Below are positions 5,738 to 19,998 of a stretch of DNA of 20,000 nucleotides, piece by piece. The notes under the pieces were generated by a model, which worked only from the letters and a program-made list of their open reading frames with translations, was not told the origin of the DNA and did no database searches. How positions within the stretch are numbered: the stretch's first letter is position 1; each line of letters begins with the position of its first letter. The stretch is from IMG/VR virus record IMGVR_UViG_3300020214_000011. One strand, written 5' to 3'. This DNA comes from an uncultured virus (IMG/VR IMGVR_UViG_3300020214_000011) (taxonomy: Duplodnaviria; Heunggongvirae; Uroviricota; Caudoviricetes). The translations under genes and the position numbers were made by a program.

Positions 5738-7681
5738 TCACTTGTCGCCCAGTCCCCTCTCCAGCAGCGACATCACCAGCTGCTCGACGCCCTCCCTCTC
5801 CAGTTCGTCCGTGGTTCCGTCCACGGCGGCGTTGACGATCTCGCGCTTCGACTCGATCAGCCTGTAGATCCTCTCGTCCACGGTTCCGTCGGCGATCGAG
5901 TAGGTGACCATCACGGACCCCTTCTGGCCGAGCCTGTGGCATCGGGAGTAGAGCTGGTCGACGTCGGCGGGCGTCCACGGAAGCTCCACGAAAAGGACCT
6001 TCTGCGCGGCGGTGAGCGTGTGGCCCGTCTTCGCAGCCTGGATGGACAGCACGATGGCCGGGGCCTCCTCGACTGGGAGCGTCTGGAACTTCCTCTTCGC
6101 CTCCTCCACCTCCTCCACCTTCATGCCGCCCTGGATCTTGAGACCGCCGAACTCGGCGGCCAGCTCGTCAACGACGTCCCTGTGGTGGGCGGCGATGACG
6201 ACCTTCTGGCCGGCCTCGATGTTCGCCTGCACCCACTCCTTGATGGATTCCATCTTCGCCTTGGCGGCGAGCCTGCGGAGCACGGAGACCTTCACGAGGT
6301 GCAGGTGCGACTCCGTCCTCATCTTGGCCGCGACGGCGGCGGACCTCGGGGACTTGCCGAGCTCCCTGGCGATCTCCTTGGCCCTCTCGACGAGGTACTC
6401 GACGATGTCGTCCTCGGCCTTGGCGTACTCCTTGGCGTGCTTCTCGCTCATGCCCACGTGGTACATGTCGTGAACCACGTCGGGGAGCTCCGCGAGCACC
6501 TGGTCCTTGGTCCTCCTGATGTAGCACGACGACCGGAGCCTGTCGTTGAGCTCCTCGAGGTTGGACGCGCCGCTGAGGATCCAGTGGCCGAACTTGTCCT
6601 TGAACGCGTCGCAGTAGCGGCGGTAGAAACCCCACTCTCCGCCGAGCTCGTCCAGTCGCCCGATTATGCCGAGCTGGCTGGCGTACTCCATGGGCCTGTT
6701 GGTCACCGGGGTCCCCGTCAGGCACAGGACAATACCCGTGCCTATTCGCTTGGCTATCTTCGTCGCCGCCCTGGTTCGCTGCGCCTCCTTCGTCTTCAGG
6801 TAGTGGGACTCGTCGCAGATGAGGCTCTGGTAATCGATCAGGGCCCTCACCCAGTGGTGGATGTTTGAGTACCCGAGGACGAGAACGTCGTGCTTCTCCT
6901 CCGGGAAGTTCTTCCTGTCGGTGACCACGGAGACGCTGCGATGCGGAGCCCACCTCGCGTACTCGGCCTTCCAGTTCAGGACGAGGTTCGGGGGGCAAAC
7001 GACCACGACCGGGAACACCGAGCACCCGTTCTGCTCGGCGTATTCCAGCGTCGCTATCGCCTGGAGCGTCTTGCCGAGCCCCATGTCGTCCGCGATGAAG
7101 CACCGGCGGGCGTTGAACGCGTAGCTGACGCCCGCCAACTGGTAGGGGAGCAGCTTGCCCTTGATGCCGTCTATCTTGATGTCGGCCGACTCGGCCCTTG
7201 ACGCCTCGTTCATCGTCTTGCTCTCAAGTTTCCGGGACTCTGCGTACGCGCGCAGGTAGACGGGCACGCCCATCTTGAACGACTCGGCGAACCCTATGAC
7301 CTCCATGGCCGAGCTCATCGGGACCTTCCATGCCTTCGTATCCGAGTTCCACGTGACGCCAGGGATCTTCTTGACCTGCCGCACCTTCACCTCGTCCCAA
7401 CCGAAGTCGATGTACGCCCAGTTGTCGGTGCATGTTATTCCGCCCGGGTCGTGGAGCCGGCTCGGTGCGTCGAACCTCATGACCGCTGGGTCAATCCTGA
7501 ACCCCCTCGCGGAGGCGAAGTCCCTCGCCTCCCGGATGCTCGTGGCGGGGAAACGCCAGACCTTGCCGACCTTGTCCCAGCGCGCCCCCCGGATGCACTT
7601 GACCGCCTGCACGTCGGACGCGTCGTAGGGGAAGTCCATCACGAGCTCGCCGTCCCCGAGCCACAGGTACTTCTGGCTCAC
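5738..7681 (-). CDS. SNF2-family ATPase/helicase, SMARCAL1/HARP-like
   Basis: IADDMGLGKT, ICDESH, LTGTP, GHTLTAA and QLYSRCHRLGQ motifs, plus two N-terminal HARP-like repeats. GTG7681 overlaps the whiB stop. Confidence 0.92.
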   Translation of the reverse strand: MSQKYLWLGDGELVMDFPYDASDVQAVKCIRGARWDKVGKVWRFPATSIREARDFASARGFRIDPAVMRFDAPSRLHDPGGITCTDNWAYIDFGWDEVKVRQVKKIPGVTWNSDTKAWKVPMSSAMEVIGFAESFKMGVPVYLRAYAESRKLESKTMNEASRAESADIKIDGIKGKLLPYQLAGVSYAFNARRCFIADDMGLGKTLQAIATLEYAEQNGCSVFPVVVVCPPNLVLNWKAEYARWAPHRSVSVVTDRKNFPEEKHDVLVLGYSNIHHWVRALIDYQSLICDESHYLKTKEAQRTRAATKIAKRIGTGIVLCLTGTPVTNRPMEYASQLGIIGRLDELGGEWGFYRRYCDAFKDKFGHWILSGASNLEELNDRLRSSCYIRRTKDQVLAELPDVVHDMYHVGMSEKHAKEYAKAEDDIVEYLVERAKEIARELGKSPRSAAVAAKMRTESHLHLVKVSVLRRLAAKAKMESIKEWVQANIEAGQKVVIAAHHRDVVDELAAEFGGLKIQGGMKVEEVEEAKRKFQTLPVEEAPAIVLSIQAAKTGHTLTAAQKVLFVELPWTPADVDQLYSRCHRLGQKGSVMVTYSIADGTVDERIYRLIESKREIVNAAVDGTTDELEREGVEQLVMSLLERGLGDK

Positions 7682-7926
7682 GCCGCCGACCTCTTGGCCT
7701 TCTTCTTGATTCGCTTGCGCTCGCTCTCGGTCTTGCCTCCCCATATGCCGTGCTCTATGTCGTTGTCGAGGGCGTACTGGAGGCACTTCTTGCGGACGAA
7801 GCAGATCGAGCACGCCTGCAGGGCCTTCTTCGGTTTCTTCCTGCCGATCGGGAAGAAGTCGTCCGTCTGCGGGATCGTCGCACACCTTGCTTTGCGTCGC
7901 CAGGACTCGCCTGATATGTGGATCAT
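7678..7926 (-). CDS. whiB: WhiB-family Fe-S transcription factor (82 aa)
   Basis: W..KARC, FFP, CxxCxVRxxC, GIWGG and a basic tail. AAGGAG precedes ATG7926. Confidence 0.93.
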   Translation of the reverse strand: MIHISGESWRRKARCATIPQTDDFFPIGRKKPKKALQACSICFVRKKCLQYALDNDIEHGIWGGKTESERKRIKKKAKRSAA

Positions 7927-7955
7927 GTAGGTACTCCTTGTAAGTAGCAAGGTGC

Positions 7956-7999
7956 AGACTACGGCGCGTCTGGACGAATTGCAACCTCCGGGGTAAAAT
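7956..7999. promoter_or_regulatory. Overlapping divergent promoters for whiB-helicase and thioredoxin
   Basis: Minus strand: TTGCAA(7984-7979)-17-TAGTCT(7961-7956). Plus strand: TGGACG(7971)-17-TAAAAT(7994)-6nt-ATG8006. Confidence 0.7.
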
Positions 8000-8005
8000 T
8001 TCATC

Positions 8006-8323
8006 ATGAGGAAGATAGACGAGGCGGAGTTCAACGAGCTGGTGGCCCAGGGCGGGCCGATGGTCGTGGACATGTGGGCCGAGTGGTGCGGGCCGTGCAG
8101 GGTCATGGGACCGATGCTTGACAACATTTCCCGAGCCTACGAGGGGTCGGTCGCCTTCTACAAGTGCAACGTCGACGAGAACCCCCAGCTGGCGAGGCGC
8201 TTCAATGTGATGAGCATCCCGACGCTGCTCATGTTCCGCGACGGCAGGAAGGTCTCGTCGATCGTCGGAGCCACCGGCCCGGACAGGGTCGTGTCGGCGG
8301 TTGACGAAGCATTCGGGGACTGA
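8006..8323 (+). CDS. trxA: Thioredoxin
   Basis: WAEWCGPC active site and VMSIPTL; 105 aa. Confidence 0.95.
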   Translation: MRKIDEAEFNELVAQGGPMVVDMWAEWCGPCRVMGPMLDNISRAYEGSVAFYKCNVDENPQLARRFNVMSIPTLLMFRDGRKVSSIVGATGPDRVVSAVDEAFGD

Positions 8324-8324
8324 C

Positions 8325-8401
8325 TGGCGTCCTCGGCAGGAGTCGAACCTGCGACCTGCGGCTTAGGAAGCCGTCGCTCTATCCAGCTGAGCTACGAGGA
8401 C
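8325..8401 (-). tRNA. tRNA-Arg(CCU)
   Basis: GTCCTCG/CGAGGAC acceptor stem, D-arm GCTCAGCTGGATAGAGC, anticodon loop TT-CCT-AA, GGTTCGACTCC T-arm, encoded CCA. Confidence 0.95.
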
Positions 8402-8423
8402 AGAACTACGTCGACGTAGTATG

Positions 8424-8475
8424 AAGTCGGCCCCCGGGGTCGGAAAAGGGAGGGAGATCCCAGGGGCCGAACTTC
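8424..8475 (-). terminator. Imperfect GC-rich hairpin, probable terminator after the XRE gene
   Basis: GAAGTCGGCCCC...GGGGCCGAACTTC inverted repeat; no long U-tract. Confidence 0.4.
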
Positions 8476-8482
8476 AACTCGG

Positions 8483-8707
8483 TTAGATTCCCCTGAGGAA
8501 CGCCGAGAGCTTGGTGCCCAGCGCCGAGCAGAGACGGGTGAGCGTCTCGAGGCTGGGCGAGAAGTGTCCGCACTCAATTCGGTTGATCGTCTTGCGCTCG
8601 ACGCCGGCGGCGTCGGCGAGGGCGTTCTGCGACATGGCCGCCTTCTGTCGGGCCGAGCGGAGTCGCTTGGCGACCTCTTTCTCGACGATGCTGATGGTTT
8701 TCTTCAT
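8483..8707 (-). CDS. XRE/Cro-CI family HTH regulator (74 aa)
   Basis: RLRSAR..MSQNALADAAGVERKTINRIECG..PSLETL; AGGAGG RBS. Confidence 0.9.
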   Translation of the reverse strand: MKKTISIVEKEVAKRLRSARQKAAMSQNALADAAGVERKTINRIECGHFSPSLETLTRLCSALGTKLSAFLRGI

Positions 8708-8727
8708 GTTGGTCCTCCTGACCTTGG

Positions 8728-9027
8728 TTATATTGCTCCTTCGTTCACCACGGAGATGTCTCCCCCGCGGTGAGCGTACTGGTACATCGCAGCGCCTATG
8801 GTGTGGCAGTAGTCGCCTCGCGTGAATGTGATTCCGTCGCCGCGGTAGGTCGCGGACTTCTCGCCCGACTCGCCCCACTTGGCGGGCGCGGCGTCCCACA
8901 CGACGTACGGCATGAAGTCGTTCCACCTGATGCACAGGACGAGCCACCCGTCCTCCCTCGCCGTGAAGGCCACGATCGTTGCCCGTTGCTTCTCGAGCGG
9001 CATGCCGACCCTCATGATCTGACTCAT
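8728..9027 (-). CDS. Hypothetical phage protein
   Basis: AGGAGGAG RBS and ATGA overlap with the upstream gene. Confidence 0.75.
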   Translation of the reverse strand: MSQIMRVGMPLEKQRATIVAFTAREDGWLVLCIRWNDFMPYVVWDAAPAKWGESGEKSATYRGDGITFTRGDYCHTIGAAMYQYAHRGGDISVVNEGAI

Positions 9028-9272
9028 CGCTCCTCCTGGACGGTCGCCTCGGCGAGGTAGCCACAACCGTTGCCCTCGGGGTCGGCCATCGGCACGAAGG
9101 CCGTTCCGTCCTCGAACTCCACGACGACGGCGAACGCCTGGTGGTCGTAGGTCCACCCCATCTCGTGGCACTCAAGGCGCGTCAGGGGTCGGACCCGGGC
9201 GATTTTCTTGCCCGCCATCCACCCGTAGGCCTTGGAGACGAGCTCGTTTCGGGCGTCGATCTTCGTCGTCAT
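9024..9272 (-). CDS. Hypothetical phage protein (DPEGNGCG motif)
   Basis: GGAG RBS, ATGA overlap and GC3 bias. Confidence 0.75.
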   Translation of the reverse strand: MTTKIDARNELVSKAYGWMAGKKIARVRPLTRLECHEMGWTYDHQAFAVVVEFEDGTAFVPMADPEGNGCGYLAEATVQEER

Positions 9273-9670
9273 AGGGTCTCCCCATCTGCGACGAGGTAGG
9301 TCTTGTAGAACGAACCCGAGCCCTTGGCGGTGACCACCCATCCGAGGATCCGCGTCTTGTCGCCGTGGGTGTACAACTTCAACGAGTTGCGCAGGTAAAT
9401 GCGACCCTTCCTGGTGATGTTGGTGTCGGTGAGCTCCTCGTACACGGTCCAGACGGCCCCGCGCTCGTTGAGCACGAAACGCATCCTGGCGTCCACGCCC
9501 TCCATGTGACGGAACCGGTCGAGGGTCGCCTCGGTCGGATTGCCGTCGTCGCCGCGCTCGAACTCGTTCAGCTGACCAATCGGGCCCCACTCGGCGCGCA
9601 GGTCGGCGAGCGTCCCCACGCCGTCGGCGTGCTGGCTCATGAACTCGGCGGTCTCGGTCCTAACGGTCAT
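9269..9670 (-). CDS. Hypothetical phage protein
   Basis: 133-aa ORF in a tightly packed operon. Confidence 0.75.
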   Translation of the reverse strand: MTVRTETAEFMSQHADGVGTLADLRAEWGPIGQLNEFERGDDGNPTEATLDRFRHMEGVDARMRFVLNERGAVWTVYEELTDTNITRKGRIYLRNSLKLYTHGDKTRILGWVVTAKGSGSFYKTYLVADGETL

Positions 9671-9673
9671 CGC

Positions 9674-9730
9674 TCAGGTCCAGAGCCAGGTCATGAAACC
9701 GCAGAACGCGAAGAAGGAGAGCTCCCACAT
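9674..9730 (-). CDS. 18-aa hydrophobic micropeptide MWELSFFAFCGFMTWLWT (copy A)
   Basis: TGATG coupling to the upstream gene, exactly fills the intergenic gap, and has a paralog at 16566-16622. Confidence 0.75.
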   Translation of the reverse strand: MWELSFFAFCGFMTWLWT

Positions 9731-10143
9731 CAGGCGTCAACCTTGGTCTCGAGCTGGGTCACCATCACGGACACGACGGTTGTGGCCTCGCTGGCCTGGT
9801 CCACCGTCGCCTGGTCGATCACGTTCATCAGGAGGGCGCTTGCGACCAACTTCTGGTCGACCTCCTCCACGACGAGCTTCTTGAGCACCGCCGGCTTGAC
9901 GAGCTTGCGGAGCTTGTCCAGGATGATCTTGGTGCGGACCGTGCGGCGCACGAACACCTTGGACGAGAGGCCGGCGTCGTCGGTGATGACCGAGAACTCC
10001 ACGCCCTCCTTGGCGCACGCCTCGATGAAGTTCTGCTCGGCGAGCTTCTTGGCCTTGACCGCCTCGTCGTAGCACGACTTCGCTTCGGCGAACGCGCGGG
10101 CCGCCTGCATCGCGCTGGCTGGCTTCTTCTGCTTGTCTTTCAT
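9730..10143 (-). CDS. Hypothetical basic phage protein
   Basis: AAGGAG RBS before ATG10143; first gene after the promoter at 10182-10210. Confidence 0.8.
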   Translation of the reverse strand: MKDKQKKPASAMQAARAFAEAKSCYDEAVKAKKLAEQNFIEACAKEGVEFSVITDDAGLSSKVFVRRTVRTKIILDKLRKLVKPAVLKKLVVEEVDQKLVASALLMNVIDQATVDQASEATTVVSVMVTQLETKVDA

Positions 10144-10181
10144 GTCTTCTCCTTGGTAGGTAGTTGGATAACTTATGGGAC

Positions 10182-10210
10182 ACACTACGGACCCACGGGT
10201 GGTATTGCAA
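10182..10210 (-). promoter_or_regulatory. TTGCAA-class promoter
   Basis: GGGG-TTGCAA-17-TAGTGT with CCG before the -10. Confidence 0.7.
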
Positions 10211-10251
10211 CCCCAATCGCAAGTTTTTTCAAATGGCTACGCAGAAATTGC

Positions 10252-10267
10252 CGTGACATGAGTCACA
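10252..10267. promoter_or_regulatory. CRP/GlxR-like binding site
   Basis: CGTGA-N6-TCACA, a 9/10 match to TGTGA-N6-TCACA, in an intergenic region. Confidence 0.4.
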
Positions 10268-10455
10268 TCATTTTTACCGAACGTTCGTCCGTTCATGTCG
10301 TCAGATATAGGTGAGACGTCGGGGGCGGCGCCTTTCCCGTCCTCGGCGTCTCGTGAAGCCTTTCACTTGCGTTCGTTGCGTTTGGAACCACGAAACGGTA
10401 GTGCCTGGGGAGCCGAAACGGGAGCGTCACCGAGAGACGGGCATCCCCACCGATA

Positions 10456-10893
10456 TCAGAACAGGTCGTCCTCTTTCCCGGCTCCCAGCGCCCTCAGGAG
10501 CGCCCCGAGCCTCCTGATATCGCTGGTCTCGGCGACCTTGGCCGGGACGATCACGAGGAGGTTCCTGTTCTTGACTTTTGTCTTTGCCACGAGCCCGGCC
10601 GCCACGAGCTGGTCCACCGACTTCCTGATGGCCCCCTCGCTGACCCCGAGGAACACGGCCAGCGACCTCTGCGTCGCGTCGGGCGTCTCGGCCAGCGCCA
10701 CCAGCAGGCGACCCGCCGCGCTGAGGAGGGTTATCTCGTCCGGGGACGAGTAGTAGATGAGCCTGTGCTTCTCCAGCTGCTTCATCACCGTCTCCGCCAG
10801 CTTGCGCGCCTCGGCGTCGTCCCCGACGCTACCCCTCAGCGCCTTGGCGAGGGCGTCGTCGATCGCGTGCTTTCTGTATTCCCCGGTTGCCAT
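10456..10893 (-). CDS. Winged-HTH (MarR-like) DNA-binding protein
   Basis: LLVALAETPDATQRSLAVFLGVSEGAIRKSVDQLVAAGLV. TAGGAT-6nt-ATG10893 suggests a leaderless start; 10899 is the alternative. Confidence 0.8.
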   Translation of the reverse strand: MATGEYRKHAIDDALAKALRGSVGDDAEARKLAETVMKQLEKHRLIYYSSPDEITLLSAAGRLLVALAETPDATQRSLAVFLGVSEGAIRKSVDQLVAAGLVAKTKVKNRNLLVIVPAKVAETSDIRRLGALLRALGAGKEDDLF

Positions 10894-10953
10894 CGACATA
10901 TCCTATTGCGCGAACGCACCCCCGTGATGTAGGGTTGCTCGCAAGGAGGAGAT

Positions 10954-11307
10954 GTGGCCAAGGACACCAAGAAGACGACAAAGCAAAGCCGCGCGATCGA
11001 CAGGAAAATCGACGTGCTCTCTGAGAGGCTGAGGAAGATAAGGAAGAACTCGAACGAGGATGCGCAGCACCTCGTATGCCCAATGGCGAAGCTCATCTAC
11101 AAGCTCGAGGAGCAGGACCACGAGACGGGCCAGTGCCTCTACGACGCGCTGAACGACGAGCTCACCTCGACCAGCGACATAATACGCGAGATGAGGGCGT
11201 CGGGCCACCGCATATCCCGCCAGACGATTTACGACTACCGCAAGAGGGTGTGCGCCTGCGCCCACGACGACAAGTGCGGACTAGACGAGAAGTTCGGCGG
11301 CGAGTGA
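10954..11307 (+). CDS. Hypothetical protein, possible HTH plus Cys (Zn) DNA-binding protein
   Basis: AAGGAGGAG RBS; STSDIIREMRASGHRISRQTIYDYRKRVCAC. Confidence 0.7.
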   Translation: MAKDTKKTTKQSRAIDRKIDVLSERLRKIRKNSNEDAQHLVCPMAKLIYKLEEQDHETGQCLYDALNDELTSTSDIIREMRASGHRISRQTIYDYRKRVCACAHDDKCGLDEKFGGE

Positions 11308-11319
11308 ACGGGAGGAACA

Positions 11320-12546
11320 GTGAAAAGGGACAAACCGAACCAGAAGAGGCTGGCCGAGGGCATGAGACGGATCAAGGAGGGCTCCGAGGACAGGGCCCGC
11401 TCCAAGAAGGTCCTCAACGCCATCGAGGAGATGATCAGGGCCAAGGGCATAGACCTCGCCGACATCGGCTCGGTGAAGAAGGTGTCGATCTACCAGCAGG
11501 TCACCAAGGACGCCGAGGGCGAGTTCCAGGTGCACGACCTGCAGGCGATCCAGTTCTCCCCGGCGTGGGAGGAGGGGCCGAAGTGGGAGCTCCCCAAGCC
11601 AGGACCCTCCGTGCAAATACAAAAGTCCGAGGTCAAGGCGAGGTCGTCTAGGGGCAGGAAGACGGCCGTCATCGTGCCCGATATACAGATCGGGTACTTC
11701 CGCGACGTCGACAGCCAGCTGATCCCCACCCACGACGAGAGAGCTATCGCCATAGCGATGGCGATGATCAGGGACATCCAGCCCGACCAGGTGGTGATGC
11801 TCGGCGACAACCTGGACCTGCCCGAGTTCGGCAAGTACAGGCTCAGCCCGGCGTTCGCCCTGACCACGCAGGCGTCGATCGACAGGGCGACCACGCTGTG
11901 CGCCGAGATCAGGTCGGCCTCGCCCAAGTCCAAGGTCGTGTGGCTGGCCGGCAACCACGAGGAGAGGCTCACCAACTACATCCTTGACAACGCCAAGGCC
12001 GCCTTCGGCATCACCAAGGGCAACACCCCGCAGACCTGGCCCGACATGTCCATCCCGTCGCTGTGCAGGATGGACGAGTACGGCGTCGAGTTCGAGAGCG
12101 GCTACCCGGCCGGGCGCTACCTGATCAACAAGCAGCTGGCCTGCATCCACGGCAACAGGGTCCGCTCGAAAGGCTCCACGGCCCACATCTACCTCAACGA
12201 GCAGAAGCTCTCGGTGATATACGGGCACATCCACAGGATCGAGCTGGCCTACAGGACCCGCCACGACTGGGACGGGGCCCGCACCATCATGGCGGCCAGC
12301 CCCGGCACGCTCGCCCGCATAGACGGCGCCGTGCCTTCCACCAAGGGCGGGGTGGACGCGTGGGGGCGCCCGAAGACCGTCGTCGAGGACTGGCAACAGG
12401 GCGTCGGGCTCGTCACCTACGAGGAAACCGGCAAGAACCTGTTCAGCTACGAGGTGGTGACGATCTACGACGGCTACGCCATATTCAGGGGCAAGGAGTA
12501 CGACGCCCGCAAGGCCAAGGCACCCAACCTCAAGCAGGCCTCATAG
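11320..12546 (+). CDS. Calcineurin-like metallophosphoesterase
   Basis: PDIQ, LGDNLD, GNHE, IHG and GHIH motifs; GGAGG RBS. Confidence 0.88.
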   Translation: MKRDKPNQKRLAEGMRRIKEGSEDRARSKKVLNAIEEMIRAKGIDLADIGSVKKVSIYQQVTKDAEGEFQVHDLQAIQFSPAWEEGPKWELPKPGPSVQIQKSEVKARSSRGRKTAVIVPDIQIGYFRDVDSQLIPTHDERAIAIAMAMIRDIQPDQVVMLGDNLDLPEFGKYRLSPAFALTTQASIDRATTLCAEIRSASPKSKVVWLAGNHEERLTNYILDNAKAAFGITKGNTPQTWPDMSIPSLCRMDEYGVEFESGYPAGRYLINKQLACIHGNRVRSKGSTAHIYLNEQKLSVIYGHIHRIELAYRTRHDWDGARTIMAASPGTLARIDGAVPSTKGGVDAWGRPKTVVEDWQQGVGLVTYEETGKNLFSYEVVTIYDGYAIFRGKEYDARKAKAPNLKQAS

Positions 12547-12554
12547 GGGGCTCC

Positions 12555-12600
12555 AGGGGGTGGCGTGCTTGTCCACTAGGCCGACAAGCGCCCCTTTTTT
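12555..12600 (+). terminator. Intrinsic terminator
   Basis: GCTTGTC..GACAAGC stem with flanking G/C pairing, followed by T6. Confidence 0.6.
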
Positions 12601-12657
12601 CCCTCCTTGTGAGACCGTCCCAAAGAAGCAACCAGCACCAGACACGGGGAGGAACAG

Positions 12658-13305
12658 ATGACCACCATAATCGCCGTGCAGGGGGAGGGCTGGTGCGTGA
12701 TCGGGTGGGACTCCCGGATCTCCAACACCTCCGACGACGGGGACTCCGAGACCCACGTGCTGTCGGACAGCCAGCGCAAGGTCGTCCAGAACGGGCCCTG
12801 GCTCATCGGGGCGGCTGGCGACCTGAGGGCGATCAACATCCTCTCCCACAACTTCACCCCGCCCGTCCCCAGGCCGACGCTCGTCGGCTCGGCGCTCGAC
12901 AAGTTCGTCTCCACCGACTTCGTCCCCGCCCTCAGGGACGTGATGGAGAAGTCGGGCTACGCCCCGATCCACAAGGAGTCCCCGGGGAAGTGCGAGTTCG
13001 AGAGCGAGCTGATAGCCGCGGTGAACGGCAGGATCTACGGGGTGGACGGCGACTACAGCTGGATCAACGAGGCCTCGGGCCTCTACTCGGTGGGCAGCGG
13101 ATCCCGCTACGCGCTGGGGGCGATGGCGGCGACCGGGTGGGGCAGGTCCCAGCTGGCCGCCCGCAACGCGGTCCTGAAGGCGCTGTCGGTCGCAAGCAGG
13201 TTCGACCCGGGCACGGGGGCGCCGTTCCACGTCGCCACGCAGCAGACGAAGGAGCGCGACGAAAGTAGCGGCAAGAAAATTAGGCGCACCAAAAAGAGTC
13301 GCTAG
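12658..13305 (+). CDS. HslV/proteasome beta-subunit-like Ntn threonine protease
   Basis: N-terminal M-TTIIAV, DSR, conserved Lys (RKV), AGD, GSGSRYALGAM and DPGTG. Confidence 0.85.
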   Translation: MTTIIAVQGEGWCVIGWDSRISNTSDDGDSETHVLSDSQRKVVQNGPWLIGAAGDLRAINILSHNFTPPVPRPTLVGSALDKFVSTDFVPALRDVMEKSGYAPIHKESPGKCEFESELIAAVNGRIYGVDGDYSWINEASGLYSVGSGSRYALGAMAATGWGRSQLAARNAVLKALSVASRFDPGTGAPFHVATQQTKERDESSGKKIRRTKKSR

Positions 13306-13360
13306 CCAAAGCAGGAATTGACCCGTAGCCAGCCGGTAGGTTTGCCCCTAGGGAGGCGAC

Positions 13361-13726
13361 ATGCCGAGGAAGAGGGAGCCCGAGGAGGGCAAGCGGCCGA
13401 AGAGAACCGCGCCAGCGAAACCGGCGTCTGCGCCGGCGGGCGTCGATATGCCAAGAACCGAGTGGATGGCGAGGGCCAGGTGCAAGGGGGAAACCGACAA
13501 GATGTTCCCCAAGGGGCACAAGGACATCAGCTACATCCAGGAGGCGCGCGAGATGTGTGCGAACTGCACGGTCAGGCACCACTGCCTGGACTACGCGCTG
13601 GAGTTCCCGGCGGCCGACATGCACGGCGTGTGGGCGGGCCTGACGTCGAGGCAGCTGGCGGCCGAGCAGAAGCGCAGGAGGATCCAGCCGACGAGGCCGA
13701 CGCTCAGCCAGATGTGGGGCGAGTGA
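13361..13726 (+). CDS. whiB: WhiB-family transcription factor with a basic N-terminal extension
   Basis: WMARARC, MFP, CANCTVRHHC and GVWAG; GGAGG RBS. Confidence 0.92.
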   Translation: MPRKREPEEGKRPKRTAPAKPASAPAGVDMPRTEWMARARCKGETDKMFPKGHKDISYIQEAREMCANCTVRHHCLDYALEFPAADMHGVWAGLTSRQLAAEQKRRRIQPTRPTLSQMWGE

Positions 13727-13927
13727 ATCCGCCCCGGCCCGGAAACGCGCAAGGGCCGCCGCGGTGGCGGTGCGGGCGGTTATCGTTGATTTTGTAGTTG
13801 CTAGGAAACCGGCCGGAATGTAAGTAGCCGGCCAGAAGCGGCGAAAAAAAAATTGAAACTACGCGTGCGCGAGCTGATTTATGCGAGACTATCGGAAAAA
13901 AATACACGCCCGGGCGCGCGTCCCGAT

Positions 13928-14269
13928 TTATCCGACGCGGATCCCGCACTCGTCGCAGAACTCGTGGCCGTCCAGACGCACCAGCCTCTGATCGCACCTG
14001 GTCCTCCCGCAGGGCCTGGTGAGCTTGTCGCCGGTTGCGTAGGCGGCGAGCACCTCGGCTATCGTCGGGTTGGGACGGCCCTCCGGCGGGGACGGCAGCC
14101 CCCTGTCGGCCCTCTCGGCCTCCCTGATCGCGTTGGAGACGAGGGCGTTGAGCGAGATGTCCTCGCGCTCGCAGATGGCCAGCACCCGGCCCTTCAGCCA
14201 GCCCGGTATCCGCACGCAGATCTGGTGGAGCTCGTCGTCGCCCCTAGGCGGCGTCGGTTGGCGGGGCAT
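13928..14269 (-). CDS. Ribbon-helix-helix protein with a C-terminal Cys4 Zn-finger-like motif
   Basis: ICVRIPGWLKGRVLAICEREDISLNALVSNAI, plus CGRTRC..FCDECG. Confidence 0.7.
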   Translation of the reverse strand: MPRQPTPPRGDDELHQICVRIPGWLKGRVLAICEREDISLNALVSNAIREAERADRGLPSPPEGRPNPTIAEVLAAYATGDKLTRPCGRTRCDQRLVRLDGHEFCDECGIRVG

Positions 14270-14429
14270 CCCTGAGCACCAGTGCCTTGAGGTAGTCGGT
14301 GATCGACATGTCGTAGCCGTCGGACACCTCGACGAGGTGGTTCTTGAACCAGGCGGGCACGCGGATGGTCACCGTCGCCCAGTCGCCGTCGGCCCTCTTC
14401 GCCGGTCTGCCACCCCTCCCGATCGCCAC
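14244..14429 (-). CDS. Ribbon-helix-helix (CopG/Arc-like) protein
   Basis: GGRP..VTIRVPAWFKNHLVEVSDGYDMSITDYLKALV; TAGCCT-7nt-GTG. Confidence 0.75.
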   Translation of the reverse strand: MAIGRGGRPAKRADGDWATVTIRVPAWFKNHLVEVSDGYDMSITDYLKALVLRDAPPTDAA

Positions 14430-14448
14430 GCGCGCGAGGCTACTACGG

Positions 14449-14922
14449 TCAGTCCGATTGCGAGGGAACCCCGAAGTTCTCCGTCTCCCAGTCGGCGAGC
14501 TTGTCGCGGTACGCGCGGAAGAAGAGCTCGCGGTCGCCGTTGGTGTGCAGCTCGAGCGCCTCGCGCCCGCCGAGGGAGGCCAGCGTCGCGGCGACGACGG
14601 GGTGCATCCTCTCGACGGAACCGACGCCCGTGCGCGACCCGTCGGCGATCCTGCGGAGCTGCGCCCACGCCTCCCACTCCCTGGGTGGTTGGTCGCCCCT
14701 GGTCGACAGCGCGATCCTGCGGACGGTGCCGGGCCTCGGGAGCCAGTTGGAGTCCTGCGCCACGAGGCGGCGGTATGCGTGGCGGGCCTCCTTGACGCTG
14801 ACGTCGGACAAGAAGCGGGCCCAGGTGGAGAGCAGCTCGTCCCAGTCCGTCCCCTTGGGGATGCGCTCGTTCCAGGCGTTGTAGAAGGCCACGACCACCC
14901 TGCCGGCGGAGTCCTGGTCCAT
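14449..14922 (-). CDS. Replicative helicase loader/inhibitor (SPP1 G39P-like N-terminal domain)
   Basis: W..FLSDVS..EA..A...V..DS.WLPRPG.VR followed by EAW..LGG..FFRAY. TGATG-coupled to the upstream replication gene. Confidence 0.65.
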   Translation of the reverse strand: MDQDSAGRVVVAFYNAWNERIPKGTDWDELLSTWARFLSDVSVKEARHAYRRLVAQDSNWLPRPGTVRRIALSTRGDQPPREWEAWAQLRRIADGSRTGVGSVERMHPVVAATLASLGGREALELHTNGDRELFFRAYRDKLADWETENFGVPSQSD

Positions 14923-15320
14923 CAGAAGTCGGTGCCCTTGGGCCTCGAGCGGTTCTCCCTGGCGATCTCGCAGAACCTCTCGATCTTGGCCGCGTCGCGC
15001 AGTATGAGCTCGACGTCGTCGTACTTGCGCCCGCGGTCGTTGTCGCCCTGGTGGAAGGGGCTGAGCTTGCAACCGGCTATCGCCTCCAGGCACGTTGCGA
15101 CGCCGTAGGTGACCACGGCCCACGAGATCCTCTCGCGGCGCTCCTCGGTGAGCTTGACCCTGTTCTCCTGGCCGGCGCGGTGCACGCGCACCCACTCCTC
15201 CCACACGGTCCTGACGTCGTCCTGGTCGGCCGACTCGCTGCTCTTCCTGCGCCGCGCGTACTTGCGCTGCGCGTGGTTCCTCCTGGGTTTCGGCTCCGTC
15301 ACGAACAACACCCCCTGCAC
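14922..15320 (-). CDS. Replisome-organiser C-terminal-domain-like protein
   Basis: VWEEW..KLTEERRERI..AIAGCKLSPFHQGDNDRGRKYDDVELILR resembles the C-termini of phage initiators. Leaderless promoter TTGATT-17-TATGAT-6nt-GTG15320. Confidence 0.6.
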   Translation of the reverse strand: MQGVLFVTEPKPRRNHAQRKYARRRKSSESADQDDVRTVWEEWVRVHRAGQENRVKLTEERRERISWAVVTYGVATCLEAIAGCKLSPFHQGDNDRGRKYDDVELILRDAAKIERFCEIARENRSRPKGTDF

Positions 15321-15931
15321 GGGAAGATCATAGGCCACCCGGGCCGCCGAATCAAGCCCGATTGCGCGCCCGTTTTTGCACAGAGCCCCACCGAACTGCT
15401 GCGAACGCCTCGCACGGACCCTCTGTAGAGAATACGTACCATTCGTTGTACTTAAGGTCATCCGATCGCACACGGAGTCACCCAGGTCGTATCGCAACGA
15501 ACCTTTGTTCGTTGCAGTACGACGAACGAACCGACCCTTCGGCTCCGTCGTCCACGAAGGAGGGCAGGTATCACGACTGACTTTTTTTGAACTCTTCTAG
15601 CGCGAAAGCGCCGCCCATGTCAAGGGCCTTGGTGGTCTTTTTTCGGGGATCGCGGGCGGAGGGGGGTCCCGTGGGCTACAATCGGCTTCGCTCGGTCTCA
15701 ACCCCCCTTGTCCGAGCCGCGGGTCGCCGCCCGGGTCTTTTCTCCTTTCTTCCCGCGGCGGCGGCTCGCTCATCCGCCACCGTCGCGGCCCCCGGCCACG
15801 CGCCGGCCCGTCATCCGCCACCGTCGGAAGGCCTGGTCAAAGCGGTCGCCCCGCGCGACGCTCTGCGGTCCCGTATCCCAATCGCCACTCCGGAGCCCCG
15901 AGGGGGTTCGTCTGGGGGGGGGGCAGGGGGG

Positions 15932-16082
15932 GGCTGGACTCTGGAACGACGCGTGGGGAGCCGGATCCCGACGGCTCGCGACGCCCGCAGGGGCTGGACT
16001 CGGGAGCGCCGCGGACGGTACGCAGGAGGCGCCGGTACGGCCGTTTCGGTACCTGCGCGGGGCCCGGCTGGACTCAGGAGCG
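15932..16082 (+). repeat. Three spaced copies of GGCTGGACTCNGGARCG
   Basis: Copies start at 15932, 15992 and 16066. Confidence 0.85.
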
Positions 16083-16127
16083 CGCCGCGAGTCGCGTTCT
16101 GGTACGGCCGTTAAGCCGTTTCGGTGC

Positions 16128-16164
16128 AAAAAAAGGACCCCGGGGTCCTTTCGGTACCCCGGGG
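16128..16164 (-). terminator. Intrinsic terminator
   Basis: On the minus strand CCCCGGGG-(TACCGAAAGGA)-CCCCGGGG-TCC then a T-run, downstream of the last minus-strand gene. Confidence 0.65.
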
Positions 16165-16187
16165 CGGAAAACGGCGGCGAAGGGGGG

Positions 16188-16301
16188 CTACGCGTCGTTT
16201 CCCTTGCGCGCGAAGATTCGCACGCAGGCCCTCGCGACGACCACCACGGCCGCCAGTGCGCAGACCGCCACCACGGCGGTCACGTTGATCCAGAACTCCA
16301 T
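16188..16301 (-). CDS. 37-aa single-pass membrane peptide
   Basis: MEFWINVTAVVAVCALAAVVVVARACVRIFARKGNDA starts 2 nt after the upstream stop; a hydrophobic stretch followed by basic residues. Confidence 0.65.
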   Translation of the reverse strand: MEFWINVTAVVAVCALAAVVVVARACVRIFARKGNDA

Positions 16302-16303
16302 GG

Positions 16304-16540
16304 TCAGCCCTTCCTCTTGTTGCTCAGCTGCACGTTGTGGAACTCCACCCACCTCGAGCCCCTGCCGGCCAGTGGCCTGACCTGCAGGTCCAGCCTGCCG
16401 TACCTGAACCGCTCGGCGACGACCCTCACGGCGACGGATATGTCGTCGATCGAGACGCTGCCGACCCTGCCCACCACGGAGCGGTGATCCCTCTTGTCCT
16501 GTGCGGAGAATGTCCGCGCCTTGTTTCGTTGCTTGCTCAT
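16304..16540 (-). CDS. Hypothetical phage protein (78 aa)
   Basis: TGGACA-16-TAGGAT-6nt-ATG leaderless geometry and GC3 bias. Confidence 0.7.
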   Translation of the reverse strand: MSKQRNKARTFSAQDKRDHRSVVGRVGSVSIDDISVAVRVVAERFRYGRLDLQVRPLAGRGSRWVEFHNVQLSNKRKG

Positions 16541-16565
16541 CCGATCATCCTATCTTCCGCCACCG

Positions 16566-16622
16566 TCATGTCCACAGCCAGACCATGAAGGTGCAGAAGG
16601 CGAAGAACAACAGCGTCCACAT
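16566..16622 (-). CDS. 18-aa hydrophobic micropeptide MWTLLFFAFCTFMVWLWT (copy B)
   Basis: TGATG-coupled; 14/18 identical to 9674-9730. Confidence 0.75.
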   Translation of the reverse strand: MWTLLFFAFCTFMVWLWT

Positions 16623-17170
16623 CAGGCGTCCGCCTTGCCGTCGGCCGGCGGGTAGGACTTCAGCTGCTGGAGCATCTTCTGGAAGCGATCCATCTCGCCA
16701 ATGGACGCGAGGCGCCTCTCGGTCGGGGTGACCGTCTCGTCGCCCCAGGATCGTCGCTCCTCCCTGACGAGGAGTTTGGAGTCCTTGAAGTCCCAGCGGT
16801 AGCGGTAGCAGTCCTCGCCCACCCACTCAACGAAGCTGCCGTCCTCCACCCAGCGGGCGATGGCCTCCATCAGGAGGTCCTCCTGGCCCTGCTTGTCGCC
16901 GTGCCAATTGGTGAGGCATATCCACCCGTCCGTGACGATGTGCTCGAACCCCATCTCGTTGAGGAGTTGGCCGAGCGACTCGTACTCGGAGAAGTCGGCC
17001 CTCATCCAGGAGAACCACTTCTCCTCCTTGCCGTCCTCGCCCACGGTGCCGCCACGCTTCATCGCGGGCGGGCACTCGGCGTTGAACTTCCTCAGCGCGG
17101 CGAGTGCGTCGTCGGCGTCCTGGGACTTGATGCGCACCGACATCTCGGTGACGTTGACGTAGTAACCCAC
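16622..17170 (-). CDS. Hypothetical phage protein (182 aa)
   Basis: Long ORF with strong GC3 bias; MGY start and GSFVEWVGED segment. Confidence 0.8.
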   Translation of the reverse strand: MGYYVNVTEMSVRIKSQDADDALAALRKFNAECPPAMKRGGTVGEDGKEEKWFSWMRADFSEYESLGQLLNEMGFEHIVTDGWICLTNWHGDKQGQEDLLMEAIARWVEDGSFVEWVGEDCYRYRWDFKDSKLLVREERRSWGDETVTPTERRLASIGEMDRFQKMLQQLKSYPPADGKADA

Positions 17171-17176
17171 GACGCC

Positions 17177-17521
17177 CTACTTCCGGCGGCGGTTGATCTT
17201 GCGGGTCCGCCTGATGATCGTCTTGACGTCGCACACGCTGAAATCGGCGCGCTTCTCCTCGTCGAGGCCCGCTGGATCCTCGACCTGGGCGTGGATCGCG
17301 CAGGAGAGCCTGTCGACCTCGGCCTCGGTGAGGCGGCGGTCGGCCGAGAACGACACGGTCGCCACGTAGGTGTTGGCCGCCTTGTTCTTGACGATCGGCT
17401 GCGTCTTGTTCTGCAGCGCCCCCATGATCCGGGAGAACTCGTTCTCCAGGCTCGTGACGCGGCGTGAGAGCGCCCGCGTCGTCCGCTTGGTCTTCTTCTT
17501 GGTTGTCTTCTTCCTGGGCAC
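17177..17521 (-). CDS. Basic hypothetical protein
   Basis: AAGGAGG RBS before GTG17521. Confidence 0.75.
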   Translation of the reverse strand: MPRKKTTKKKTKRTTRALSRRVTSLENEFSRIMGALQNKTQPIVKNKAANTYVATVSFSADRRLTEAEVDRLSCAIHAQVEDPAGLDEEKRADFSVCDVKTIIRRTRKINRRRK

Positions 17522-17551
17522 GGTGGCCTCCTTATCGTTGTTCGTGGTTAC

Positions 17552-17580
17552 ACGATACGGCGACATGTGGTCCCTTGCAA
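17552..17580 (-). promoter_or_regulatory. TTGCAA-class promoter
   Basis: GGGG-TTGCAA-17-TATCGT with CCG before the -10. Confidence 0.7.
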
Positions 17581-17583
17581 CCC

Positions 17584-17763
17584 CTAAGGAGTGTCATCCG
17601 CCACCGTCGTTTCCCTGGGCAGGAGTTTCCCGATGTCGGTCGTCATCTCGTCGAGCCTCCGCAGGATCGCGGGGACGTCCCTGTCGGAGACCTCGTGGCC
17701 GAGTTCGGCGACGTCGTCGGCGATCCTCTCCCAGAACATCTCGGTCAGCTGCCTGCCGGTCAC
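17584..17763 (-). CDS. Small hypothetical protein
   Basis: GTGA overlap with the upstream gene. Confidence 0.6.
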   Translation of the reverse strand: MTGRQLTEMFWERIADDVAELGHEVSDRDVPAILRRLDEMTTDIGKLLPRETTVADDTP

Positions 17764-18014
17764 TTCCGCTTCCCGCGCTTCCTCTTCGTCGAGAGCATGC
17801 GGCGCAGGCGTCGGCCCAGGTCGGCGTCCCGGTCGGCGACCTTGCCCTTCTTGGGGACGCGGAGCCAGCCCTGCTCGCCCAGGACCCCGTCGTGATAGAC
17901 CGACTCGACCTCGTAGAGGGGTCGGTCGTCGAAGCGGATCATGAGGGTCTCGTCGTCCAGGACGAAGCCGTCCCGCTCGGTCCACTTGACGACGAAGTAG
18001 TGCTCGATGCTCAT
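17760..18014 (-). CDS. Hypothetical protein with a basic tail
   Basis: ATGA overlap; MSIEHYFVVKW... Confidence 0.7.
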   Translation of the reverse strand: MSIEHYFVVKWTERDGFVLDDETLMIRFDDRPLYEVESVYHDGVLGEQGWLRVPKKGKVADRDADLGRRLRRMLSTKRKRGKRK

Positions 18015-18355
18015 TGGGCGCCCTGCGCGATCAGGCGCACGAAACCCGCGTTCGGGTCGGCCTCGTCGTGCCACACCGCCGACACGAATCGCAGCGGGCA
18101 GGATTCCTCCCACCAGGCGACCACCATGTCGTACATCTCGTCGGGCGACCCCGAGAACTTCTCCGAGAACCCACCCGTCCTCCGGCGGAACCACTCCGCC
18201 TCGGTCTCGTCCATGGCCAGGTAGATCTTGTGGCACCCGTCCCAGGCGACCAGGACGGCCCCCTCAGCGTACCTCCGCACGGCGTGCAGGCCCTCGGCCA
18301 CGCTCCCGCTGTCGTGCGAACTCTCGTAGTCTCGTCGCAGCGTCGTCTTTTCCAT
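18011..18355 (-). CDS. Hypothetical phage protein (WDGCHKIY motif)
   Basis: Leaderless ATG 7 nt after TAGCGT; GC3 bias. Confidence 0.75.
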   Translation of the reverse strand: MEKTTLRRDYESSHDSGSVAEGLHAVRRYAEGAVLVAWDGCHKIYLAMDETEAEWFRRRTGGFSEKFSGSPDEMYDMVVAWWEESCPLRFVSAVWHDEADPNAGFVRLIAQGAQ

Positions 18356-18362
18356 GGGCGTC

Positions 18363-18455
18363 ACGCTACGGCGCGCACGGGCACCTTGCAACCCGCAAGG
18401 AGGTGACGTGTGCCACTTCTTGCGGGTTGCAACCCGCAAGGATCGGCGGTAGTGT
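18363..18455. promoter_or_regulatory. Back-to-back TTGCAA-class promoters with a 22-bp perfect palindrome
   Basis: Minus strand TTGCAA(18391)-17-TAGCGT; plus strand TTGCAA(18427)-17-TAGTGT. Palindrome CTTGCGGGTTGCAACCCGCAAG at 18419-18440. Confidence 0.75.
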
Positions 18456-18462
18456 TTGGGGC

Positions 18463-18717
18463 ATGGAAAAGGAAACGAACACGCTCACCGACGAGCAACG
18501 ATGGCATTTGGACGAACTCACCCAGGAGTTGGAGCGGGCGATCCGCTACTACCGGGCGATCCTGGACGCGATCAGCGGGGGCGGGTACTCGCCCGCCGAC
18601 GCCGCGACCGACTGGGAGCAGCTCGCCTTCACCGAGGGGCTCAACCCGATGGCGGCCCTGGAGCAGTACGCGCACGGGGACGAGGGGTACCAGGGCAACC
18701 CGTGGGTCGTCCAATGA
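18463..18717 (+). CDS. Hypothetical acidic protein (84 aa)
   Basis: Leaderless ATG 7 nt after the -10; MEKETNTL... Confidence 0.75.
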   Translation: MEKETNTLTDEQRWHLDELTQELERAIRYYRAILDAISGGGYSPADAATDWEQLAFTEGLNPMAALEQYAHGDEGYQGNPWVVQ

Positions 18718-19031
18718 GGACCGAGACCGTGAGGCTGTATCACGGAACACCCGTGGCGTTTCCGAAGCGCACGCGCAAGGTTCACCCCACGCCGACGACG
18801 CAAGACACGGGTGGCTATCCGTTGGGTTGGCGTATCGCACACGCGACGAGCGACATAACCGAAGCGCAACTGTACGGCCCGGTCGTTTATGAAGTTGCGT
18901 ATGACGAGCACACGCAGGAGGGATACGGCGAGACTTGCTATTTCAGCGAGCGTGGATTTTGGATCATCAGGCGAGTGCCCCGGAGCGAGTTGATCATCCA
19001 CCACCGTCGTTTCGTTTTATCCGTCCGGTAG
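18714..19031 (+). CDS. ADP-ribosyltransferase-fold protein, Arr-like (105 aa)
   Basis: LYHGT, AHATSD..A..YG.VVYEV and YFSERGFWIIR; ATGA overlap. Confidence 0.6.
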   Translation: MRTETVRLYHGTPVAFPKRTRKVHPTPTTQDTGGYPLGWRIAHATSDITEAQLYGPVVYEVAYDEHTQEGYGETCYFSERGFWIIRRVPRSELIIHHRRFVLSVR

Positions 19032-19054
19032 CCGGCTCTTCCCCGCGCGCACTT

Positions 19055-19126
19055 GTTCACGAGTCCAGCGTCAAGTGAAGCCGTTCACGAGTCCAGCGTC
19101 AAGTGAAGCCGTTCACGAGTCCAGCG
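19055..19126. repeat. 28-bp perfect tandem repeat, about 2.6 copies
   Basis: GTTCACGAGTCCAGCGTCAAGTGAAGCC at 19055 and 19083, partial at 19111. Confidence 0.95.
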
Positions 19127-19253
19127 CCCTAGAACGAGACTGGGCTCGAGAGTAAGTACGCGCGCCGCGTGATCCAGGCCCGACGGGCGCGCGAACTTCG
19201 GGCTGGACTTCCGAACGGAAGTTCGCGCGTCGTTCTCGCGCCAGGCGCGATCT

Positions 19254-19562
19254 TTACTGATCGACGGAGTAATCGTATTCGTCGTCGCTTTCGCACCAGG
19301 CGTCGAGGTGGTGGGCGTCGATTATCGCCCAGGCCGGGGCTTCGGTCTGCCCTCGCCACGAAACGCCTTCGGGTAGGGCTACCTTCTCGTCGACGTTGCG
19401 CCTAGCGTTCCACGCTTCGATCGCGGCGATGCAGGTCGGGACCATTATTTCCGGGACCGGCGGGTAGTGATTACCCTTGAGATGCCACGCGATCTGTCGC
19501 TCCAGCGAGACGCCGAACTCCTCGGCGGCTTCGCGCATAGAAATGGCGGAGAAGAGACCCAT
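19254..19562 (-). CDS. Hypothetical phage protein
   Basis: 102-aa ORF (WHLKGNHYPPVP, HHLDAW) starting 4 nt after the upstream stop. Confidence 0.75.
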   Translation of the reverse strand: MGLFSAISMREAAEEFGVSLERQIAWHLKGNHYPPVPEIMVPTCIAAIEAWNARRNVDEKVALPEGVSWRGQTEAPAWAIIDAHHLDAWCESDDEYDYSVDQ

Positions 19563-19566
19563 CGCG

Positions 19567-19998
19567 TCACCAACTCGCCTGGTAGAGGAAGTCGACGTTG
19601 GTGCGGTGCTCGTCGGACCGCGGAAACCAGTCGTTCAGGATCGACCTGAGCTGCGTGACGGTCAACTCCAGGTCCTGCCAGTAGCCGTCGTCCACCTCGC
19701 TAGAGCCGAAGAAGAACCCCTGCGTCGGGGGCAACTCCCTCTCGGCCGTCGCGACGTCGGCAACGAGCAGTCTCTCGCCTAGGTGGAGCAGAGACTCGAG
19801 ACCCTCGCGGGGGACGTACATCTCGCGGCAGTCGTCGTCGCCGTTGGCGATGTTCCGGACGAACCATCCGTGAATCGCGTTGGCCTTGCGCCAGTACGCC
19901 ACGCACATCGTGACGCTCCCGGTCAGACCCACGGCGAGCGCGCCCTCGGTCGCCCCGACGGCCGACATCCCGGCCGCGTCCCTTATCTTGACGAACTC
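19567..19998 (-). CDS. Conserved-looking phage hypothetical protein, 5'-truncated
   Basis: YWRKANAIHGWF, LPPTQGFFFGS and YQASW motifs; frame open to the window edge. Confidence 0.8.
   Translation of the reverse strand, partial: EFVKIRDAAGMSAVGATEGALAVGLTGSVTMCVAYWRKANAIHGWFVRNIANGDDDCREMYVPREGLESLLHLGERLLVADVATAERELPPTQGFFFGSSEVDDGYWQDLELTVTQLRSILNDWFPRSDEHRTNVDFLYQASW

Follow-up and report, generated by a model that had tools for sequence, protein, structure and literature searches.

Small proteins of superinfection exclusion or host takeover, such as T4 Imm and HK97 gp15, are encoded by single-copy genes of 60–90 amino acids (aa). Iap of Pseudomonas phage D3 is also present once, in the serotype-conversion cassette of a temperate phage, and the cellular peptides MgtR, MgrB, AcrZ, KdpF and CydX (29–49 aa, single copy) use one transmembrane helix to tune a larger membrane protein. 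We compare with these and similar systems two open reading frames (ORFs) of 18 codons, copies A and B, in a 20,000-nucleotide (nt) stretch of DNA from an uncultured virus of the Caudoviricetes (IMG/VR record IMGVR_UViG_3300020214_000011); ‘the window’ means this whole stretch. A and B belong to a real and apparently undescribed family of multicopy phage micropeptides; the literature searched, mostly without subscription papers, described neither such a family nor dispersed phage micropeptides that co-vary. What is surprising, and open to test, is coordinated type switching: the copies of one genome change sequence type together, which suggests, from sequence comparison, tuning to a shared partner in the membrane of the infected cell.

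Iap, of 31 aa, is believed to work within the membrane on one particular host protein: it would mimic a transmembrane helix of Wzz and bind Wzy (PMC12004945). The present family resembles it in being phage-encoded, short and hydrophobic (single-helix by composition); it differs in length (16–21 aa) and in having two or three dispersed copies in predicted early operons. No polymerase or acetylase gene of the serotype-conversion type was found among 36 window proteins, and the family is not classed with Iap for lack of such a cassette in the window. The 19-aa IbsA of Salmonella is reported to bind the Fo subunits a and b (bioRxiv 10.1101/2025.05.26.656083), and five Sib/Ibs pairs are described for E. 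coli (PMC2943612). The likeness to IbsA–E (18–19 aa) lies in size, near-total hydrophobicity and multicopy occurrence; however, Ibs genes stand alone on the chromosome and antisense Sib RNAs silence them, whereas the ORFs considered here are coupled inside phage operons. Consensus scans alone gave no opposite-strand promoter-like site near A or B. With the general features of type I toxins, as presented in PMC10730256, used for comparison, the family was not classed with type I toxins: such toxins are expected on a stand-alone transcript with a repressible leader of its own, and all 25 high-GC copies of the family start on the upstream stop within an operon. Nor was it classed with attenuator or arrest leader peptides, as the ORFs are internal or terminal in operons and showed 0 consensus base pairs. 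Mycobacteriophage Fruitloop gp52 is reported to bind DivIVA/Wag31 and to exclude another phage (PMC7474061). Proteins of this type are similar as small early or accessory phage products neutralising a host envelope factor, and by analogy an exclusion role may perhaps be considered; coordinated switching among dispersed paralogues was not met for exclusion or takeover small proteins in the literature searched.

The two ORFs and their start contexts are:

9674..9730, minus strand: micropeptide copy A, 18 aa (MWELSFFAFCGFMTWLWT); ATG at 9730, TGATG overlap with the upstream stop
16566..16622, minus strand: micropeptide copy B, 18 aa (MWTLLFFAFCTFMVWLWT); ATG at 16622, TGATG overlap with the upstream stop
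9725..9745, minus strand: start context of A (CAAGGnnGACGCCTGATGTGG)
16617..16637, minus strand: start context of B; its CAAGG part lies inside a 12-nt segment missing in relatives L074 and L075

A sequence-only reading of the window had proposed A and B as paralogues under selection at protein level, spreading as a mini-cassette. The paralogy was reproduced: the peptides are identical at 14 of 18 residues, with 79% nucleotide identity over 72 nt (repeat family D3). After the start codon they have 13 of 17 residues in common, against 5 for the next-best pair (171 pairs among the 19 window ORFs of 18 codons). The four synonymous differences that the reading had listed are present as well (L4 CTC/CTG, A8 GCG/GCC, L16 CTC/CTG, T18 ACC/ACA). 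Window codon usage is strongly biased (TTC:TTT 83:1, TGC:TGT 45:3), which explains the identical Phe and Cys codons of A and B. The motif GACGCCTGATGTGG has two exact occurrences in the window; allowing up to two mismatches, 0.23 were expected and 2 were reached in 7 of 200 shuffles. The start context, reported as shared at 19 of 21 positions, is indeed so in this genome; as a family feature it fails, the CAAGG of site B being missing in L074 and L075.

The family extends beyond the window: 16 distinct 18-aa copies of the close type, that of A and B, were found in 8 related genomes. All 16 have exactly 18 codons. Of the contrary signs named by the sequence-only reading, the two open to sequence analysis were not seen: none of the 16 carries a stop, frameshift or other indel, and RNAalifold gave a consensus of 0 pairs for 15 aligned copies. 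The ratio of non-synonymous to synonymous polymorphism (pN/pS), computed from mutually dependent pairs among the 16 copies, was 0.55 in the peptide frame versus 0.77–1.60 in the other five frames, in agreement with the proposed protein-level selection; for codons 6–17 it was 0.34 versus 0.64–2.55. M1, F6, F9, C10, W15 and W17 are invariant in all 15 aligned copies, from genomes about 75–80% identical. We have little doubt that the family is protein-coding. A codon-model gene caller kept, as the sole short hydrophobic ORFs (up to 32 aa) of the 98-kb record G002, precisely the three copies of the family; in G003 it kept two copies and one short hydrophobic ORF on the opposite strand.

The hydrophobic character of A and B is, judged by composition, general to the family: the grand average of hydropathicity (GRAVY) is 1.0–2.1 in all 25 high-GC copies (16–21 aa), none of which contains K or R, and there is at most one acidic residue near the N-terminus. 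We consider it highly probable that the peptides are membrane-inserted. A profile search of the PDB gave just two 9-residue matches, to V-ATPase subunit f (E 0.34–0.46), taken as chance. The 18-aa copies fall below the 20-residue minimum of the domain scanner, so domain scans covered relatives of 20–26 aa: six had no Pfam match, and four had no match in NCBIfam or PADLOC. No Rfam match was obtained for the micropeptide ORFs.

Folds of each ORF with 40 nt had z between −1.7 and +2.2 in all 29 cases. A 97-nt window around copy C (the third copy) of L073 reached z −3.1, with the pairing lost in L075. A hairpin at site B was rejected as a conserved RNA structure, since two-sided change occurred in just 2 of 21 pairs. 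An alternative 27-aa reading over site B, which the caller preferred in L073, L075 and L077, was rejected because pN/pS of that frame is 1.6–1.9.

Each genome has two or three dispersed copies. Inspection of loci surrounding three genes of the window showed them at syntenic places and revealed a third slot, C, beside A and B. When the 78-aa gene that follows copy B was used for a scan, 9 further viral and 19 metagenome loci were obtained; with duplicates of known records excluded, 24 loci were examined around this gene. Slot B, directly upstream of it, holds a coupled hydrophobic ORF of 18–21 aa in 15 of the 24 loci, which are all 15 of the high-GC loci; the 9 low-GC loci have no coupled ORF of 18–21 aa at this place. 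Slot A (after a 137-aa gene) is occupied in five of seven genomes, for example in L008, G002, L081 and G007; in G003 and G006 the same operon ends instead with a peptide that follows a helix-turn-helix (HTH) gene. Slot C is occupied in all six genomes covering that place. The record L073, 99.97% identical to window positions 6307–19009 (12.7 kb) and divergent beyond, has a third copy at 2529–2585, beyond the window's end, and so a third copy is likely in the window's own genome as well.

Several low-GC relatives have, after the 78-aa gene, an uncoupled hydrophobic ORF of 23–26 aa with its own ribosome-binding site (about 10378–10459, plus strand, in L067, L069 and L071); it is single-copy in four of the five short records searched and missing in the fifth, and its kinship with the family is unproven. 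The same holds for the kinship of a coupled 15-aa ORF in an A-like region, L068:18622–18669 (plus strand). L073 has two more short hydrophobic ORFs, of 28 and 25 aa, at 7177–7263 and 2964–3041 (plus strand); the former sits where the window has a 102-aa gene, within a segment (window 19009–19569) in which two otherwise 99.97% identical sequences differ.

Pattern scans of viral contigs, of the kind that the sequence-only reading had proposed, gave 8 and 9 stretches of the close type, all of them within this clade. Among 185,579 species genomes a scan requiring the whole ORF gave no cellular match; the one match was a 3.9-kb fragment (L100), 99.6% identical to phage locus L075. This fragment sits in a genome bin labelled Deltaproteobacteria and was probably mis-binned. 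In an isolate phage collection the 78-aa gene was unmatched, and copy B gave three chance-level DNA matches (E 0.2–0.8).

Copies within one genome co-vary. Three lineages (L077, G003 and G006) carry a distinct type at both their sites. By gene similarity L077 groups with the window lineage; at site B, compared with L075, it has 90% nucleotide identity upstream and 95% downstream, versus 54% in the peptide. The site-C peptide of L077, 6.4 kb off, is of the same new type, and B and C are mutual best matches (57 versus 32 and 42). The operon-end copies of G003 and G006 find their best matches in the site-B peptides of their own clade. Within the close type, position 13 is M in every window-lineage copy, the G002 lineage having I or V there, and both copies of L079 carry F7L. 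Paralogues within a genome were closer to each other than across genomes in 13 of 16 quartets (one equal, two lower), and in 18 of 21 with L077 included. Label permutation gave p = 0.007 for five genomes, 0.010 without L075 and 0.0008 with L077; for seven lineages the observed value was reached in 0 of 5000 shuffles. Codons of 4- and 6-fold degenerate residues were shared at 0.59 within genomes versus 0.53 across genomes (p = 0.18); this lack of a significant rise leans towards peptide-level selection, though short conversion tracts may also contribute.

The start overlaps the upstream stop in all 25 high-GC copies, so that the coupling part of the proposed cassette stands as a general feature. 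The other part, an upstream gene ending in K-x-D-A, was seen in some relatives only and was rejected as a family feature: upstream genes end variously, e.g. in REA, GAV, GRQ or VAS. These genes vary by site and lineage, with at least six unrelated ones, and the start codon is kept in every copy. Residues 2–5 and the L16 codon tend to track the site, not the genome, indicating that the slots are old; the spreading proposed for the mini-cassette is not supported in that form, the three slots being kept in synteny and not recently inserted. The notion of a mobile unit was nevertheless rescued in part by L077, where the site-B peptide was exchanged along with about 20 nt of upstream DNA; peptide and junction appear exchangeable as a small unit.

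A gene adjoining copy C also follows peptide type:

L073:2224-2529, plus strand: gene P, about 101 aa, directly before copy C

Among 19 genes scored, P was the sole clearly discordant one: the window strain has 39% identity to L077 and 61% to G002, while two other genes differ by at most 3 points between L077 and G002. The comparison covered the window strain, L077 and G002; G003, G006 and G007 are fragment records. The model of P is confident (predicted local distance difference test, pLDDT, 86.5) and the protein is predicted to be soluble. Relatives are few (4 near homologues; 14 representatives at E ≤ 0.001); there was no usable ESM Atlas match, the best PDB Z was 2.2, and BFVD gave no match at E ≤ 0.001. 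The predicted fold is thus without a match in these searches, which does not imply a novel fold. A role of P as a phage partner of the peptides is a lead only, since P adjoins copy C and shared transfer explains its discordance equally well.

The sequences themselves show that the ORFs have a coding signature and are conserved, how many copies there are, that these are coupled and hydrophobic, and that they co-vary inside a genome; that they are translated, sit in the membrane, are made early and act on a host target, and what this target might be, is inferred. The peptides would be single-pass membrane micropeptides of 16–21 aa, made early from two or three separate early operons and translated by re-initiation at the stop/start overlap. 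The ribosome exit tunnel can hold an entire chain of 18 residues, so insertion would take place after release, and the occasional N-terminal acid along with the absence of K and R suggests an N-out orientation. Every copy would most probably bind the same host membrane protein inside the membrane and inhibit or retune it, in the manner of D3 Iap or IbsA; this protein might be part of the DNA-entry or receptor machinery, an enzyme of the envelope, a transporter or a defence sensor in the membrane. Extra copies could supply dose and timing. When the target changes, with a new host or a new allele, all copies would be re-matched by recombinational replacement and parallel substitution. Taken as a whole, this mechanism of early coupled peptides acting on one host membrane protein is put forward tentatively, at a little short of an even chance.

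Several points weigh against it. Co-variation within the close type is small (10.9 versus 10.2 identical residues of 17, from non-independent sequences), and in 2 of 16 quartets within-genome similarity was below that across genomes. The synonymous test had low power, and its trend (0.58 within genomes, 0.51 across) leans slightly to gene conversion. The operon-end ORFs of G003 and G006 were chosen by eye from a list filtered by overlap and hydrophobicity; that of G006 scored just 2.5 and was dropped by the codon-model caller. The site-specific residues 2–5 hint that the copies are not simply redundant. That lineages of differing type infect differing hosts is an assumption, and the switching of P, apparently a soluble phage protein, with peptide type would fit a phage partner equally well.

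One could also speculate that two or three paralogues from separate early operons, which have to match in type, form a distributed lock-and-key set of 18-residue transmembrane peptides. They would share a single membrane target or assemble into one hetero-oligomer, and the whole set, possibly with P, would be swapped in step when the host or the exclusion group changes; we regard this as doubtful. If the partner were encoded by the phage itself, the paralogues would co-assemble into a hetero-oligomer (a pore or an exclusion complex), or pair with P, and would match each other, not the host. The discordance of P and its tracking of peptide type agree with this, as do the site-specific N-termini beside co-varying C-terminal halves; however, P may have travelled in the same recombination block as copy C, it is predicted to be soluble, and low-GC relatives have P without a micropeptide called directly behind it, so that a phage partner seems unlikely. 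The peptides might also be non-specific membrane agents (mild depolarisers, or Ibs-like toxins serving host takeover), their likeness within a genome being due just to neutral gene conversion or re-duplication. Across all types nothing but hydrophobicity and length is kept, both MW-x-L and the upstream GACGCC are common to window-lineage A and B in a manner resembling a short conversion tract, and the clade recombines freely, with L077 a mosaic. What makes this explanation distinctly unlikely is the invariance of F6, F9, C10, W15 and W17 in 15 of 15 copies from genomes only about 75–80% identical, together with the persistence of the site-B L16 codon CTG between the co-varying positions 13 and 18 and differences between copies B and C of L077 at four of eight shared degenerate codons.

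Suppose instead that the ORF works in cis and controls the downstream gene, either by relaying translation or by stalling ribosomes (through its Phe, Trp and Cys codons, or as an arrest peptide). Such a role is improbable: the copies have no structure in common, the z values of the ORFs with 40 nt staying in the range given above, aromatic codons are not kept in other types, and several operon-terminal copies have no same-strand gene after them to control (those at site C of G002, L081, L079, L075 and L077, and the operon-end copies of G003 and G006), although each ORF is coupled upstream, the chain fits the exit tunnel and, in two copies, base pairing is possible between the coding sequence and a purine-rich region downstream (window B, z −1.7; L073 C, z −3.1). 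All junction forms (TGATG, TAATG, ATGA and GTGA) put the ORF in the −1 frame, and in 21 of 25 high-GC copies this frame has no stop over more than 13 codons upstream; a −1 frameshift could then give the upstream protein a C-terminal membrane anchor, made of the hydrophobic stretch. We consider this very improbable, as no slippery heptamer was found in any of the 25, four site-A copies have an in-frame stop 3–7 codons upstream, and the start codon is kept throughout behind at least six unrelated upstream genes. The lineage-specific types resemble ‘dialects’, as if the ORFs were precursors of a secreted signal (arbitrium-, SHP- or ComS-like), and with ComS they have in common the size range and the aromatic C-terminus. 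A basic N-region is an export-signal feature of RRNPPA/arbitrium-type peptides; no K or R occurs in 25 of 25 copies, and among 36 window proteins there is no receptor of RRNPPA, HTH-tetratricopeptide repeat (TPR) or TPR type, just a 74-aa HTH_3 protein. The family was not classed with peptides of this type, and there is scant prospect that any secreted signal is involved; nor is there a sign of a lysis–lysogeny choice, since no integrase or resolvase was found in five partial records (44–79% complete). Finally, several columns are invariant at nucleotide level, as they would be in a non-coding DNA or RNA repeat that reads as an ORF by accident; codon bias accounts for the invariant third positions, frame-specific pN/pS, the constancy of start and stop and the interchange of TGA and TAG speak for coding, and with no consensus structure and no Rfam match such an accident is exceedingly improbable.

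Standard gene callers do not see genes of 18 codons, and, to our knowledge, phage genomes rarely keep dispersed paralogues. Three copies under protein-level constraint in genomes about 75–80% identical, changing type jointly, are what one would expect if they had a binding partner in common; in the search for the target, the peptide types could serve as naturally occurring specificity variants. Should this target be a membrane protein of the host, the peptides would rank with the shortest phage effectors and offer a way into the envelope biology of Acidimicrobiia, which are abundant and mostly uncultured; if the lock-and-key set were real, peptide type would be a readable code for host range or phage–phage exclusion in uncultured actinophages. 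The combination of syntenic slots with within-genome co-variation is reusable for other hidden micropeptide families.

The operons of copies A and B contain the following promoter-like sites and genes:

10182..10210, minus strand: promoter-like TTGCAA-N17-TAGTGT, head of operon A (consensus match)
17552..17580, minus strand: promoter-like TTGCAA-N17-TATCGT, inner site of operon B (consensus match; repeat D14)
18363..18391, minus strand: outer promoter-like TTGCAA-N17-TAGCGT, member of a divergent pair (consensus match)
9730..10143, minus strand: 137-aa gene upstream of A, its own TGA overlapping the ATG of A
9269..9670, minus strand: 133-aa gene after A
17177..17521, minus strand: 114-aa gene, first after the inner promoter-like site of operon B
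16622..17170, minus strand: 182-aa gene upstream of B (phrog_38862, unknown function), TGATG overlap
16304..16540, minus strand: 78-aa gene after B, slot marker across the clade
16188..16301, minus strand: 37-aa hydrophobic ORF at the end of operon B, of a different family from the micropeptides

Both ORFs thus lie, as the sequence-only reading had it, within operons headed by TTGCAA promoter-like sites (TTGCAA-N17-TANNNT), which from their consensus would be of housekeeping-sigma type. The same motif stands ahead of early operons in all eight relatives scanned. In the window the motif GGTTGCAA-N17-TAG/TAT recurs at 7955–7986, 10181–10212, 17551–17591 and 18362–18432; it includes back-to-back divergent pairs and is kept across the clade.

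For the 137-aa gene there was no match in Pfam, PHROG, NCBIfam or PADLOC; an ESM Atlas lead points to DUF7173-like phage clusters, with the family on 35–47% of members. The 133-aa gene is missing at its position in G002, G003 and G006. G003 has no 182-aa gene, the peptide there being coupled to the 114-aa gene. The 37-aa ORF is kept in close relatives and in G006, and had no Pfam match above cut-off.

The window is phage DNA, with genes for SSB, an SNF2 helicase, two WhiB proteins, a DNA methylase, a metallophosphoesterase and an HslV-like peptidase; in the isolate phage collection the phosphoesterase had just distant actinophage relatives (35–41%). The related records are fragments of 66–117 kb with 44–79% completeness. 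G002, G004 and G005 represent one phage, their long common segments being 99.98% identical. Over aligned parts, identity to the window is 94.7% for L008, about 80% for G002 and G003, and about 74% for G006.

WhiB is described as serving as an actinophage marker (PMC6802176). Next to the transfer-messenger RNA (tmRNA) region of G002, a host-like methionine aminopeptidase fragment was found (L040:11846-12415, minus strand; about 51843–52415 in G002). The G002 fragment has 75–87% identity to mostly unnamed proteins, and its named homologues come from Actinobacteria, Ilumatobacter and Ilumatobacteraceae (75–84%). These homologues point to Acidimicrobiia as likely hosts; by sequence similarity we have here a large actinophage clade with Ilumatobacteraceae as the probable host.

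In the window the tmRNA (tag ANKQFALAA) lies at 5300–5680 and a tRNA-Arg(CCT) at 8325–8401, both on the minus strand. The ORF of the C-5 methylase (2658–4016, minus strand) is overlapped by an ORF in another frame at 3497–3880 (minus strand), which has a methyltransferase-associated PHROG match. Two tandem repeats were seen, one of 28 nt at 19055–19138 (two exact copies and one partial) and one of 42 nt at 994–1106, within a low-complexity ORF at 65–1456. The late region of the relatives contains very large ORFs of 2800–4955 aa, at 59894–74761 and 87862–96348 in G002 and at 67575–78926 in G005.

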